From positions 1-47,303 of the IMG/VR virus record IMGVR_UViG_2728369105_000001: a DNA stretch of 47,303 nucleotides. One strand, 5' to 3'. The DNA comes from a virus (lineage: Duplodnaviria; Heunggongvirae; Uroviricota; Caudoviricetes). Shown here one piece after another: positions 33,001 through 39,000 of this stretch (position 1 is its first letter; the number at the start of each line of letters is the position of its first letter). The position numbers were made by a program.

Positions 33001-36000
33001 CCCGGATATAACCCAGCGTCGTTTTGGTTCGTCCCCCCTTGCCATAGGTCGAGTTGGTTACCCGATTGAAATGATCCAGAACGAGATCTGCCGGATCGGT
33101 CTGGTCTGGTTGCAGCGCAACCGGACAAGAGTCTTTACCTGTAATCTCTGTAGTACTCTCTGTTGTATTCTCTGTAAGATCATCGTGCCAATTTGACCTG
33201 ATGACAGCGGTTCGTTTTGACCCGGTGGAGCGTTTCACAATGACCTCTTCCATCGTGTCATTTTGACCTGATGGAACGGCGCATTTTGACTTCTTCGATT
33301 TGGTCACTTTGACCTCATCTAAAAGCTCGCTTTCGTAGTTGATCGTGTAATAGTTCGTCATGTCGCGCTGGGACTTGTTCAGCTGCTCAACTTTAAGCAC
33401 GCCCAGGCTCTTCAGCCGGGTGAAGGTGCGCTTCAGAGTGGATTCAGACCAGAACGGGAATTGCTCCAGCCATTGCTCTGTCGTGTTGTAGATCCAGCGT
33501 ACGCCGTCACGCTCCAGCCCTGAGTTAGTCTCCTGCAGCCAGTAGTTAAGCTGCTGCAGCGCAATGGCTTCATTCAGGCCGATGCTATAGGCAAGGTCAG
33601 GATTGATGACTATCGGCCTTGATGGCATTAACAGGCTCATAAGACCCCTCTATTTCCCTGAATTTTCGTCTGAACTGCTCGAGGGGGCTGAAACACTCGT
33701 GCTTATACCCTTCGCGCAGGTATATAACGCGCTGTGTTTGGGGCTCCCAGCGTATGACCCTGACCGGGACGCCGTAGTGATCTCTGAACCATCGGTTGAG
33801 CTCTCGCATACTTTCTCCGCCTGGCCGTTAAAGTCCCCTACCACCCACTGAGCAAACTGGTAGCAGACAGGCTCGAACCCGCCTAGTACTCTTACCCCAT
33901 ACACGAACTGCACCGGCCCTGCTCCACCAGGAACTGGCCGCGCTACAAGTTGCGACCTGCGGTATTGTGTTGATAAACTGTTCATGCGTTAGTAATCTCC
34001 ACTGATAACGACACGCCACGACGCCAGGAGCTGCAACTCGCTGGCGTCACTTCTTTTTGCGTGCAAACAACGTGATAATTGCCGCGATCTCTTCTTCACG
34101 CGCAGCCAGGTGGCGGCGGTGATGCACCATGATTTCTTCAGCTTCATGTCTTTCGATTACCCCATCCTCAAGTGCCTGTTCGATAATCTGATCAACCTGT
34201 CCCCTGGCGGCAGAGGTACGCATTGCCCGGCTGAACAAGTCCACGCGATCGAGTTCTTCCAGGTGCGGAACATCCACCAGCAGAGCACCACGGCGGCGAG
34301 CGAAGTAGTCAGCCAGTAACGACGTGTTGGAAATGTCTTCCATCGCTTCCAACTCGCTGACTTCGAAGAAACGACAGCCGTTTTTTTCGTAGAGGTTGTT
34401 GTTGAACTGCGTGACGGTCATACCCAAGGCGCCAGCCATTGCTTCGCGGCCGCCCGGATATGCTTTGCACATCGCTTTGACGGCTTCTTTGAGGTTTGGC
34501 TCTACCATATTGATTTTCCTTTTGTAGTTACTTTCAAGCGGCTTAATCTGTAGCCTTTTGGTAAAGGCTGGCGTCGTACTTAAGCTTGCCATTTGTGATT
34601 CGTTCAATGACAAATGCCTGTTTTTGAGGGATTACATTCCCCCATTGACACACCGCGCTATGGGTAACCCCTAACGCAATGGCTGTTTTAGAAATGCCGC
34701 CGTAGTATTCGACGACTTGATTTTTTAACATGCTCCACCCCCTTAAAGTTAGCATTCTTACATCGTATATGGACAGCATGCTTACGTCAATTGAATGTAA
34801 GATTACTAACGTGCAATCCGAGGAGAATTTATGGATACCGTTGGAAGCAGGCTGAGATTTAGGCGAAAGCAAAAGAAGCTTACGCAGCGAGATATTGCTG
34901 AGTGGGCTGGCGTCAGTGCATCTGCAGTCACCCAATGGGAAAGTGATGTAACAAAATTATCTGGTGAAAACCTGATATTGGTATGTAAATGCCTTCAATG
35001 TTCGCCAGAGTGGTTGGTTTTCGGTAATGGCGATATTGAGAATGGCATTAATATCAATCTCATCGCCACCAGAGAGGTCCCGGTTATCTCATGGGTTCAG
35101 GCTGGAAACTGGACGGAAGTCATTGGAAATCCAGGGAATGAATTAGTTAAAACAACTCGTAAACTTTCAGATTCGGCATTTGCTCTCAGAGTAAAAGGGC
35201 ATTCAATGACATCGAATCATGAGCTTAGTATCCCGGATGGATCGATTGTAATCGTAGAGCCAGAATACGGGTTTGTTGACGATGCAAATGGTAAAATCGT
35301 GGTTGCGCAAACAGTTGCGGGTGGCGAGGCGACTTTGAAAAAGTTAGCTATAGACCCGCCATATTCCTACCTAATCCCATTAAATCCATCGTTTAAACCA
35401 ATTGAGGTTACCCAAGATACAAACCTGATCGGCATTGTTAAGCAAATCATTATAGACCTCTAACATTTCCCTCAAACCGAAGCCCGCAACCAGCGGGTTT
35501 TTTTTCGCTCCGTCACCATAAGTAAGAATACTTACAAACAAACCTTGACTATAAATGTAAGATGTCTAATATTATCCATCATTGGATGCCAACACTCCCG
35601 AGATGAAGCGTTGGATTGCCAAGATGATTTGCAGAAAAAAGCGCCCAGTGGACGCTTAGCTCTTTAAAAATCCGGATATCAACCATAACAAATTACTTCG
35701 GTTTTGGCTGAGGCGCAGGAGGCCTAGGGAACGGAGGTGCGTGGTTTGGGATGATAGGGGAGCTCATGTCTAGTCCTTAAAGTCACGGCATATCCCCGGC
35801 AATCCATGCAATAACACGTTTTCTCAAGGATAAGTTAATCTCGCAATTTCTTCCTAAAGAAATACAGGTTCGCTTAAAAGCAGCTTCTTGCAATGACTGC
35901 CACGGAATGCTGTCGGCATCTTGAATTTTAATGTATTTTTCTCGCAACTCTTCATCTGTTAGAGAGCTTAGCTCTACAAGCAGTCTTCTATATTGCCTCA

Positions 36001-39000
36001 TCTGCTCTTTAGATAGACCAGCGGCCTGTCCAAATTGATAGACCAGTTGAATAACAGATAAAAAAGCAACGGTTACACCGAATAAAAATAAATTCATGAA
36101 AGGTGCAAAAACAGAAAAACCCAAGACGATTAAAAGCATAGTGATTGCTTTGTCAATCCTAGTAAGAACAGTGAAATACATTTTCTCTAAATGAAATGAG
36201 TAGTTCACATCAAAGATCATATCGTCGCGGGTCATTTCACACCTCAGTCTGAATCATCTGGTTTCGGAGGGGGCTCAGGCCTCTTAAACGGAGGCATATG
36301 CCGCTCTTCGTAGTCATAGCTCATTATCGAAACTCCATTTGTTGTTGGGGATATCCAGATTAACCGAATCCTTGTTGTTGGGGAATAACTAGGATGCACC
36401 GAGCCTGATGTGGATAAAAGACAGGCGCACAACATGGAAGCGCATTCCCCTTCTTTCCGGTGGGGATCGGTTTGTAACTTAAGGAGTGCGCTTCCAGTTG
36501 TGACGTGTACAAGCGTACTGCAGCGCCGGTCGACGCAAAGACCCTGAAATCGACTGAGCAACAGCAGCTGGTTGCCAATACCAAAACAGAGCGGCGGGAA
36601 GTAAGCAGATTAGCGATCTGGTGTCACAACATTCATTCCCGATAAGTCCCCTTCTACTGAGGAGGTTTATCGGGACTGGAAGAGTTACCACTTGGAGACG
36701 GTCCTTTTAAATGTCCTGGACAGTGGCGCTTTGGTAGCGATAAAAACCACTCCAGTTGATCCTGGGAGTTATCAGGTCAGTGAGCTGCCAGCACTCTCGA
36801 CGGCAGTGACAGCCGGAAGTAGACGGCACAGCCCAGACGATATCTGAGTGGCTTTAAAAACAGATGGGAGCCGGTGGAAGCCCGGCACACAACAGGAAAA
36901 AGCACTGTGTTAGTCAAGTGAGTTTCCAGTGCTTCAGTGCTCTTTCCGTTGTGTGGAGATAACTAACTAATCCTTTGCAGAGGAAACAGAAATGAAATTA
37001 TCAAAGTTACGTAACGCCATTGTCTATCGGGCTACTTTGCCCAGTATTGAAGCAGTTGAAGGGCACCTGCAGGAATTGCCCTACTCTGAACTTACAGCAA
37101 CGGAGTTCGCGCGGGCTTCCTTCGTCCATAACCCGATTACCGGTGAGCTGGTTACGCCAATTACTGGCGGTTATGCAATCGTGGTTCGCCGCGATGAAAA
37201 AATAATCCCCCAGCACGTCGTGATGAAAGAAGCAAATGAGCGTATCCAGCGCATCGAAAATGCGTGTGGTCAAAAATTGAAGCGCGCTGACCGTAACAAC
37301 ATTATCCAGGATGCTAAGGTTCAGCTCTGCAAACAGGCATTCATCAAGTCGTCTCTGATCTTGGCCCTGTATAACACTGAAGAAAATCTGCTGATCATTA
37401 ATTCCGCCAATAAAAATATTGCCAATTTAGTCGGAGCGATGCTGGTTAAAGTGATTGGCTCAGTAAAAACAGTCACGATCAACATCAGTGATATCAAAAA
37501 CGGCCTGACAACGCGCCTTAAAAACCATCTGGACGGCGAAGAATCAGCCTTTGCCTGGTTTGAGGTCGGTGATTATGTCCAGCTATCCCGCCTGGCGGAA
37601 CAGAAAGAAGTCATTCGCTACTCTGCGGAACACACTTCCGTTACCAGTGAAATTCTGGAGAGCCTGAACACAGGTTTTATCGTCGATAACATGGAATTAA
37701 GAGGCTGCGGCGTCTCTTTTCTGCTTACAGATAAGTTCCATTTCCGGCGGATCGATACCAAGGATAATGATTATTCTGATGATGACGACAAAGCCTACCG
37801 CTGGCGTCACCAGGCAGGTACGGACATGTTCCAGTTCTGTAAAGTAATTAACCAGCTTTGTGATCTGCTCGCCTACAAAGAGCCCGAAGAACAAAAACCA
37901 GCAGCCTGATTAGAACAGCAGCAATTACCCCATTCTCATGGGTTGGGTTGCTGCGCCCTAAAACGCGTTGCAGCGCGTCAGTTGGAGAAATAAAAAATGG
38001 GAAAAACAGTACAGCAGTTAATTAAAGATGCCTTTGAGGCAGCTAAAACAATGCCTCCTGAAAATTCAGAACTTATTAAAGAGCTGGCAACAATGCTCGA
38101 TGTTTCGAATATTACCCTTCGGCAGGCATGTAAAGAACGTGACGCTATGAAGGAAGAAGTTATTTCCTGGGCGAAAGAATGCGATCGAATTGTTGAGCGT
38201 CACACAAAAAACCGCAGCAATATGCACGTACTGGAAGCAATGCGCGATCTGAAAAGTATCTCAACGACATCCACCAGCAATCCGGAGGATGTCTGATGGC
38301 TAAAGACTCAAAGCTGGTATATGGCGCGAGTGGCAAAACGAACGTTTTGACGTTCGAACCTGAAAACCTGCACCTGGTAACCGACAAAACGCACCCGCTT
38401 TACGATGAGCGTATCCACCTGCCTATCAGCGAGGCAATGGTGCTGAACATCATGGACCAGGGCGTTCTTGAGCCGATTATCGTCTGGAAAGACCCGGAGA
38501 CAGGGCTGTCTTGTGTAGTCGATGGTCGCCAGCGTGTGCGCCATACACTGGAAGCCAACAAGCGACTGTTGAAAGAGGGTAAAGAACCGTTACTGGTTCC
38601 AGCAGTCGCTAAACGTGGCTCCGCCGTTCGCATGGCACAGGCGATGGTAAGTGCTAACGAAATCCGCCAGGCAGATACGCCACTGGGCCGAGCAAAGAAA
38701 ATGGCTGATGCGCTGGAACGCGGGCACGACGAGGACGATTTAGCGCTGATGTTTGGCGTGAGTGTCCAGACCGTACGCGCAACTCTGTCACTGCTGGATG
38801 CCACCCAGGCTGTTCGCGATGCAGTGGAGTCCGGAACGGTCACCGTTACCCAGGCGCGTCAGCTGGCATCGCTTAAACCTGAAGAGCAGCGGGAGAAGGT
38901 ATCTGAAATCGAAGCGGCAACTGCTGGCACAACCGGCCATGAAAAAGCCCGCCGCCAGCGTCAGATCCTCGGTGATGCAAAGCCGCGCCTGAAAACCCGC

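Follow-up and report, generated by a model that had tools for sequence, protein, structure and literature searches.

What does a short minus-strand transcription unit do between the cI repressor gene and the early-left genes of a lambdoid-type prophage? The unit lies in IMG/VR virus record IMGVR_UViG_2728369105_000001 (Caudoviricetes), which was analyzed as one window, namely, the full 47,303-nucleotide (nt) stretch, and all coordinates refer to the whole window unless a locus is named. Three minus-strand genes were found in the order ORF-A, ORF-B, ORF-C (ORF, open reading frame). The middle gene encodes a membrane protein with two transmembrane (TM) helices, and the outer two encode proline-rich micro-proteins. 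Together they form a conserved prophage moron of three genes, which occupies a fixed cargo slot situated in the leader of the early-left promoter, PL. Low GC content and a terminator of its own, both typical of morons, were observed; the GC content of ORF-B was 38% vs 48% for the window.

The membrane protein gene and its micro-proteins

The first-pass annotation of this DNA had described a minus-strand unit, composed of two 13-bp direct repeats 33 bp apart, a possible 26-codon ORF whose stop lies in the ribosome-binding site of the next gene, a 150-amino-acid (aa) two-TM protein, and a hairpin with a T-run. All of these features were found in the sequence, the repeats were exact, and the unit was self-contained, ending in its own terminator (Table 1). 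The inventory of genes was correct for ORF-A and ORF-B but had missed ORF-C. ORF-A is acidic, with a net charge of about -3, and has GGAG 8 nt upstream of its ATG. Its stop codon TGA (36244-36246) is located inside GAGGTG, the Shine-Dalgarno (SD) sequence of ORF-B, which starts 8 nt later. This arrangement, in which the ORF-A stop falls within the ORF-B ribosome-binding site, points to coupled translation. Among 44 distinct ORF-A variants, the gap between the ORF-A stop and the ORF-B start had a mode of 8 nt, and an SD-like tetramer abutted the stop in 25. A hairpin in which proline codons (CCUCC) mask the SD of ORF-B was also considered, but it was not supported by folding of the ORF-A/ORF-B junction, as the RNA was no more stable than its shuffles (z = -0.23). 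ORF-C is a basic paralogue of ORF-A with AAGGA 7 nt upstream of its ATG, and the two share the motif H-x-P-P-F-x-R-P-x-x-P.

The conservation of the micro-proteins was determined in 96 loci collected from public assemblies, IMG/VR, and four sequenced phages, 78 of which were non-identical and had enough flanking sequence. As controls, 515 other ORFs of at least 100 aa from the same loci were used. An upstream short ORF carrying the His-Pro motif and ending at most 40 nt from the ORF-B start was present in 75 of the 78 loci, compared with 0 of the 515 controls, and the three loci that had no standard ORF-A contained degenerate versions. Downstream of ORF-B, 68 of the 78 loci carried one to three motif copies each, and the total number of micro-protein copies per cassette was 2 to 4. 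The pairing of micro-protein and ORF-B was kept at 31-37% ORF-B identity in Fels-2 and in Yersinia P2-like, Providencia, and Elizabethkingia phages, and it was found in Gilliamella genomes as well. Across the loci, the micro-proteins were 20-35 aa in size. PADLOC gave no match for them. Gene callers omitted the micro-ORFs in most of the loci read; the records of the Providencia and Elizabethkingia phages annotate the upstream small coding sequence (CDS).

The consensus motif was H-Φ-P-P-[RK]-x-R-P-P-x-P. In the profile anchored on the histidine, a hydrophobic residue occupied +1, proline +2 and +3, arginine or lysine +4, any residue +5, arginine +6, proline +7 (92-98%) and +8, any residue +9, and proline +10, with the histidine and the prolines at +2, +7, and +10 as the invariant residues. 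The lead-in before the motif was an acidic D-D-Y-E-E-R/K in ORF-A types and R/K-P-I-I-P-N in downstream types, and the distance from motif to stop was variable among the micro-proteins. In the six-frame translation of the window, H-x-P-x4-P-x2-P occurred twice, both times in the cassette; composition-matched random sequences gave a mean of 0.43 and a maximum of 3. Some peptides (loci L050 and L075-L078) contained two tandem motifs. Moreover, in Pectobacterium (cluster P0033) the motif is naturally fused in frame to the C-terminus of ORF-B, and the fused proline-rich tail was modelled with a predicted local distance difference test (pLDDT) value of ~80 by AlphaFold2 with no alignment depth.

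Selection on the micro-ORFs was quantified with Nei-Gojobori counts from ungapped orthologues. For ORF-C, the proportion of synonymous differences (pS) was 0.43-0.90 and that of non-synonymous differences (pN) was 0.06-0.21, and the variable columns at codon positions 1, 2, and 3 numbered 7, 6, and 21 over 24 codons. The corresponding values for the ORF-A core were a pS of 0.42-1.29, a pN of 0.00-0.31, and 7, 4, and 15 variable columns over 15 codons. Most of the variation was held by third-codon positions, and synonymous sites were near saturation. As pS was high and pN was low, ORF-A and ORF-C appear to be translated, with a constrained amino-acid sequence. Judged from these substitution patterns, both are genes under purifying selection at the amino-acid level.

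A third proline-rich ORF at ~3560-3635 of the Enterobacter loci L007-L010 is seemingly split by a frameshift into MNKYYAGDHDRHDHMQ, ending in a stop, and an out-of-frame MKPRPPAPPKK. Its E. coli counterpart is the single ORF MNAFIYTWKEDHIPLKPRPSPPEPKPKSR. The split version may represent either a pseudogene or a site of frameshifting.

Position of ORF-B in the SLATT superfamily

ORF-B had initially been described as having no recognisable similarity, and this was not borne out. It matched phrog_6315 (function unknown) with E = 7.5e-46, and it is a remote relative of SLATT proteins. Hydropathy analysis gave a single hydrophobic block at residues 26-69, which the AlphaFold2 model (mean pLDDT 82.8) splits between helices 3-41 and 49-66 with a short loop between them, placing the TM helices at about residues 27-47 and 49-68. 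The two-TM assignment of the first-pass annotation was thereby confirmed. In this all-helical model, a long helix at the N-terminus continues into TM1 and is followed by TM2 and four cytoplasmic helices. A conserved surface of the protein is marked by QDADSxPWxSL and AWxAGDLP. From hydropathy and flanking charges, both termini are predicted to be cytoplasmic, which is the compartment of the signal-less peptides. SLATT proteins have a size of ~150-250 aa and two adjacent TM helices folded as a hairpin, and ORF-B shares this arrangement.

The best matches of ORF-B among viral structure predictions (BFVD) were giant-virus SLATT proteins, with a probability of 1.0 and TM values of 0.5-0.64; no specific fold match was found among the solved structures in the PDB. 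When ORF-B was searched against Pfam together with 43 close and 56 distant relatives, no SLATT, Rex, or SieB family was matched. The NCBIfam model SLATT_4 was matched by 14 of the 56 distant members (best E 2.7e-5) and SLATT_1 by 2 of the 56, in a table without bit scores or cutoffs. From the fold matches and the sub-threshold SLATT_4 matches in distant relatives, it was concluded that ORF-B represents a diverged SLATT-superfamily branch that falls outside the curated SLATT families. Proteins of this superfamily have been described as defence effectors and predicted pore formers of the toxin type, one of them being the effector of DRT10 defence, and their activation has been described as an open question (bioRxiv 10.64898/2026.04.29.721553).

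The close relatives of ORF-B comprised 64 cluster representatives from Enterobacterales. A profile search of 1.84 billion representatives returned 411 clusters at E <= 1e-3, and nearly all of the 150 listed were 130-190 aa in length; among the taxa covered were Gilliamella, Regiella, Microvirgula, and Photobacterium. Family members were annotated as hypothetical or were automatically named SLATT. Searches of IMG/VR with single distant family proteins gave no loci. In every context read for the close relatives, the gene was located between an S24 repressor and early-left genes and ran antiparallel to the repressor, and all family contexts read were in prophage or phage, antisense to lytic operons. 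No SMODS cyclase, SLOG, or reverse transcriptase gene was next to ORF-B in the loci read, where the neighbours were cI-type repressors and early phage genes.

On the strand opposite the SLATT-like gene, annotated CDSs were found in Fels-2 (L014, NC_010463, region 2336-2935; STM2733.1) and in Yersinia phage vB_YenM_42.18 (L015, region 2235-2953; vBYenM4218_008). The conserved pair of micro-ORF and SLATT-like gene on the other strand suggests that both of these annotations are wrong.

An exchangeable cargo slot in the PL leader

The first-pass annotation had called the location of the cassette Rex-like. A more fitting description is that of a dedicated slot for exchangeable cargo within the untranslated PL leader. 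The flanks of the slot are fixed, with a minus-strand terminator and a boxA on one side and the two direct repeats on the other. Related E. coli prophages have the same flanks around unrelated minus-strand genes, which encode an ECs1072-family protein in one case and a 171-aa coiled-coil/zinc-ribbon protein in another. The cargo was counted in 50 IMG/VR loci that had both flanks. The coiled-coil/zinc-ribbon protein was the cargo in 32 loci, the SLATT-like gene with proline-rich ORFs in 13, and a 148-aa protein, assigned as ECs1072-like from its size, in 3; the remaining 2 had no clear ORF. The commonest alternative cargo (L002 3167-3682, minus strand; e.g., L099 among the 32 loci) is 163-171 aa long and combines a coiled coil at its N-terminus with a CxxC...CxxC zinc ribbon at its C-terminus. 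The alternative cargo proteins gave nothing informative in Pfam or PADLOC, and the ECs1072 family, the third cargo type, is an NCBIfam hypothetical equivalog.

Both flanks were kept whatever the cargo or immunity type. In the direction of PL, the left flank reads AAAAAAGCGCCC-N4-5-GGACGCTT-N-GCTCTTTAACAAT-CTGGATATCC, and the right flank reads TTGGGGATATCCAGATTAACCGAATCC-TTGTTGTTGGGGAATA and then continues into a structured segment. The right-flank segment matched 833 of 5426 complete E. coli genomes. The slot boundaries are joined by an inverted repeat, I1, of 25 nt with 80% complementarity. Insertion of the cargo into a palindromic target, CTGGATATCCAG, with an empty site elsewhere was also considered, and the search gave chance matches only.

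The cassette terminator was conserved at loci with unrelated cargo and is thus part of the slot, not of the cargo. By direct reading of the loci inspected, the sixth pair of its stem is G.U in the minus-strand RNA but a C.A mismatch in the plus-strand RNA; the hairpin should therefore be stronger in the sense of the cassette and weak for PL transcripts. On the other side, the 13-bp direct repeats were kept in 59 IMG/VR loci, and a search at <=1 mismatch found no further exact copy of TTGTTGGGGA in the window. A candidate cassette promoter in this flank consists of a -35 element TTCCCC (36385-36380), a 17-nt spacer, and a -10 element TAATCT (36362-36357), with a predicted start at ~36350. On visual reading, without a count, TAATCT was constant among the right-flank rows displayed, and some relatives have GATAAT or TATAAT one or two bases upstream of this position. 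Such a promoter would put the two repeats over the -35 element and just past the start.

The immunity region of the window is of the lambdoid type, with the CII-like and Cro genes facing cI. The first-pass annotation had considered a PL near 35545, from which transcription would run antisense through the cassette, and this placement was supported. The promoter scan gave a sigma-70-like candidate with -35 TTGACT (35545-35550), a spacer of 16/17, and -10 TAATAT (35567-35572), which is bracketed by the 14-bp operator-like sites GTAAGAATACTTAC (35522-35535) and GTAAGATGTCTAAT (35557-35570). The operator motif recurs twice in the right operator (OR), between cro and cI (34748-34761 and 34797-34810), and an equivalent layout of operators and promoter is present in the related loci L001 and L002. 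Operators common to the PL region and OR support a repressor-controlled PL at 35545 and, as this promoter is on the plus strand, its transcription would be antisense through the cargo slot.

The PL transcript must traverse ~1.4 kb before the first early-left gene. The boxA-like element lies ~90-110 nt downstream of PL and directly 3' of the terminator hairpin, is the sole match in the window at <=1 mismatch, and was kept irrespective of cargo or immunity type in L001, L002, and ~50 IMG/VR loci. The version found in most relatives, GCTCTTTAACAAT, is what we take to be the rrn-type boxA consensus. The placement of this element suggests Nus-factor-based read-through of the 1.4-kb untranslated early-left leader. 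No N-like gene was apparent between PL and rdgC. Published work on antitermination in mEp021 deals with a different phage group.

Table 1. Coordinates of the cassette, the slot boundaries, and the surrounding immunity and early-left features
Feature	Position	Strand	Basis or remark
CII-like gene	34047-34613	-	Domain scan
P22-type Cro	34543-34731	-	Domain scan
cI repressor, helix-turn-helix and peptidase S24	34831-35463	+	Domain scan
Terminator ending cI	35479-35501		Terminator scan
Left operator (OL)/PL region	35522-35572	+	Operator-like sites flanking promoter
Intrinsic terminator of cassette	35631-35657	-	Hairpin 35657-35639, then T-run (terminator scan)
boxA-like element on PL transcript	35659-35671	+	GCTCTTTAAAAAT in window, GCTCTTTAACAAT in most relatives
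Left slot-boundary motif copy, CTGGATATCC (CCGGATATCA in window)	35672-35681		Flank alignment
ORF-C, 24 aa, basic proline-rich micro-protein, MSSPIIPNHAPPFPRPPAPQPKPK	35693-35767	-	ORF scan
ORF-B, 150 aa, two-TM membrane protein	35783-36235	-	PHROG match, AlphaFold2, hydropathy
ORF-A, 26 aa, acidic proline-rich micro-protein, MSYDYEERHMPPFKRPEPPPKPDDSD	36244-36324	-	ORF scan
Two exact 13-bp direct repeats, TTGTTGTTGGGGA	36339-36351, 36372-36384		Right slot flank; 33 bp start to start
Right slot-boundary motif, GGATATCCAG	36349-36358		Inverted relative to left copy
Candidate weak cassette promoter	36357-36385	-	Inferred only
RdgC gene, first early-left gene	36992-37909	+	Domain scan

Several further elements were observed in the leader beyond the slot. 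A conserved H-type pseudoknot lies just past it at 36394-36426 on the plus strand, with ATGCAC/GTGGAT as stem 1 and GCCTG/CAGGC as stem 2. In the alignment, 88.8% of cells were paired, vs 29-35% when the partner was slid. Compensatory changes were found at 4 pairs, the covariation score was above all 500 shuffles, and locus L124 had a compensatory change in both stems. An Rfam search of 34000-38000 on both strands at E <= 1 returned no family, for the pseudoknot or otherwise. The PL leader at 36400-36990 (plus strand) resembles a decayed tRNA array, in which the unit AGTGCGCTTCCAGT is present four times; at the equivalent place, L001 has an intact tRNA-Arg (3163-3239). The segment 36827-36887 shares 85-95% identity with the sequence that follows a tRNA gene on its 3' side in virulent Gamaleyavirus phages, which are N4-like, and in certain Klebsiella phages, and a tRNA-Arg (CCT) gene is present elsewhere in the window, at 43783-43857 on the plus strand. 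In addition, a sigma-70-like match at 10 of 12 positions, TAGACA-18-GATAAT, occurs on the minus strand at 36997-37026, within the first rdgC codons and directed toward the leader and the cassette. It is outside the conserved slot and may be a chance match.

Proposed function of the cassette

In our judgment, at a probability of about 0.5, the cassette encodes a membrane effector expressed in the lysogen, with the micro-proteins acting in trans as partners or regulators of ORF-B. Transcription in the lysogen would start from the weak right-flank promoter, and during lytic growth PL, firing antisense across the cassette, would silence it. ORF-B would be an effector that permeabilises or blocks the membrane and shields the lysogen from other phages through abortive infection or exclusion. 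The micro-proteins would be cytoplasmic partners that hold or gate this effector in an antitoxin-like or sensor-like manner, replacing the nucleotide-signal generators or reverse transcriptases of known SLATT systems. A role in trans was favoured because micro-protein copies are found downstream of ORF-B, with 2 to 4 copies per cassette, because some peptides have tandem motifs and the conserved features are a histidine and spaced prolines, not a PPP run, and because the motif is fused to ORF-B in P0033 and the peptides and both ORF-B termini are predicted to share the cytoplasm.

By analogy, the cassette looks like the lysogen-expressed membrane effectors of exclusion and abortive infection, such as Rex and SieB, and like SLATT effectors generally. 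With SLATT systems it shares a small protein in which a two-TM hairpin at the N-terminus precedes a helical cytoplasmic portion, carriage on mobile elements, fold-level matches, and the SLATT_4 and SLATT_1 matches of distant relatives. Unlike those systems, it has no adjoining nucleotide cyclase, SLOG domain, or reverse transcriptase in the contexts read, and the sole conserved partners of ORF-B are the micro-proteins. Like RexA/RexB of lambda and SieB of lambda and P22, ORF-B is a membrane protein encoded beside cI and PL of a lambdoid prophage and is presumably produced by the lysogen; another parallel is that the sieB gene of lambda and of Rac runs antisense to the PL operon. However, ORF-B has no sequence similarity to these proteins (no Pfam Rex or SieB family at E <= 0.1), the cassette is oriented opposite to cI, unlike rex, and it is located between PL and the first early gene, in an untranslated leader and together with micro-protein genes.

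Several results weigh against the trans-acting effector reading. ORF-B fell below every curated SLATT threshold and had no Pfam match; on the SLATT_5 model NF033631 it scored E = 0.099 and 12 bits, vs a cutoff of 60. The weak matches to generic '2TM effector' models of PADLOC-DB v2 (E = 0.0049 and 0.012) are in keeping with a membrane effector, but no known defence system was matched strongly. The promoter scan gave no convincing sigma-70 promoter for the cassette, and the candidate has a poor -35 element. The other cargo types have no assigned function, so the slot need not be a hotspot of defence genes. The motif fusion was a single cluster (P0033) among 271 family proteins and could represent tolerated loss of a stop codon. 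Furthermore, a role in cis would agree equally with the location of the ORF-A stop within the SD and with the many PP motifs, and an antitoxin-type model must account for survival of the phage at its own induction, at which PL shuts the cassette off.

The cis-acting alternative is that the short ORFs are leader and trailer peptides, in which an elongation factor P-dependent pause at PP or PPP, or a pause at termination, sets the initiation of ORF-B, and the downstream copies tune mRNA stability or protect the 3' end. The stop-in-SD geometry with its typical 8-nt gap fits this explanation, as does the occurrence of at least one PP in 39 of 44 ORF-A variants and 48 of 49 downstream motifs, and amino-acid conservation is also expected of arrest peptides. 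MgtL, SecM, and TnaC are precedents for cis-acting leader peptides. As in MgtL/MgtP, SecM, TnaC, and the mok gene of hok/sok, a very short ORF is placed just upstream of a gene for a membrane or toxic protein, and its stop overlaps the ribosome-binding site. However, PPP was found in only 11 of the 44 ORF-A variants, 28 had PP only, and 5, such as the E. coli variant FHVPVNQRPAPIPEPKPEM, had no consecutive prolines. Thus, polyproline stalling, which the first-pass annotation had offered as the mechanism, is not a defining property of these peptides. The invariant histidine and the prolines at +2, +7, and +10 correspond to no known arrest motif, the motif-to-stop distance is variable, and no significant alternative RNA fold was detected at the junction. 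The one to three copies downstream of the effector gene are unable to control its initiation, and paralogous copies at such a place set the cassette apart from arrest leaders. The resemblance to hok/sok is also incomplete; no sok-type antisense RNA gene was evident, and the PL message itself would be the antisense transcript. The earlier proposal of a membrane effector under leader-peptide control therefore stands for the two-TM, effector-like SLATT-type protein and for the common stop-in-SD arrangement but not as a leader role for all copies. Overall, cis action is possible but unlikely as the principal role. The trans and cis models are compatible, and coupling may simply set stoichiometry.

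A function outside defence would make the cassette an addiction or maintenance module, or a lysogenic-conversion gene whose membrane protein alters host physiology, with the micro-proteins as accessory subunits. The moron-type architecture, seen in the low GC and in a terminator of its own, the presence of cargo genes without known defence function in the same slot, and the lack of a strong PADLOC match are consistent with this explanation. Against it, the known proteins of the SLATT superfamily are effectors of conflict systems, and all contexts read were in prophage or phage antisense to lytic operons, the usual site of exclusion and abortive-infection genes. We therefore regard it as rather improbable.

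A more speculative elaboration of the effector reading is a two-component immunity of micro-protein plus pore, operating with no nucleotide second messenger. The micro-proteins would then form a new class of peptides encoded by phages, with regulatory or effector roles. The peptides would be polyproline-II ligands that plug or gate the SLATT pore and are titrated by a protein of the invading phage, or they would be endogenous inhibitors of the ribosome or DnaK, released at infection and resembling proline-rich antimicrobial peptides (PrAMPs). We consider this a long shot.

It is also conceivable that the micro-proteins themselves are the active agents, that is, PrAMP analogues acting on the ribosome exit tunnel or DnaK, with the two-TM protein as conduit, immunity factor, or trigger. 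PrAMPs such as oncocin, apidaecin, and Bac7 are likewise short and have PRP or PRPP repeats, and Pro-Arg-Pro motifs are described as defining PrAMPs (PMC11678341). The hexamer PRPRPP is contained both in downstream copies such as EPFHVPPRPRPPQPGK and in oncocin, VDKPPYLPRPRPPRRIYNR. However, this resemblance is a short low-complexity motif, and a PDB sequence search with two micro-proteins, against chains of at least 20 residues, was empty. Unlike PrAMPs, the cassette peptides are made by a prophage inside the bacterium, contain far less arginine and are much less cationic, with ORF-A being acidic, have a conserved histidine, and are genetically linked to a membrane protein; genes for export or uptake are absent. 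This explanation is very improbable. Finally, an origin of the short ORFs by chance, as reading frames of a spacer rich in proline codons, is hardly credible, for although they have only 24-26 codons and are unannotated in most loci, they recur at nearly all loci and at none of the controls, combine saturated synonymous with low non-synonymous change, and carry a motif that occurs in the window only at the two cassette sites.

No description of this module was found in the literature, the coverage of which was incomplete, and a prior description is possible. The obligate pairing of a SLATT-like effector with 20-35-aa proline-rich micro-proteins, which take the place of a signal-generating enzyme, appears to be new, as does the defined cargo slot in the PL leader. 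A SLATT-like protein paired only with tiny proline-rich proteins provides a minimal and tractable system of ~700 bp for the restraint and release of an effector. The micro-protein genes, mostly unannotated and yet among the best-conserved features of the locus, are an example of functional micro-proteins hidden in prophages. Moreover, the slot, with its fixed terminator, boxA, and flanks, offers a defined site in which more genes expressed in lysogens can be sought, and it shows how a phage tolerates antisense cargo inside an untranslated early leader.

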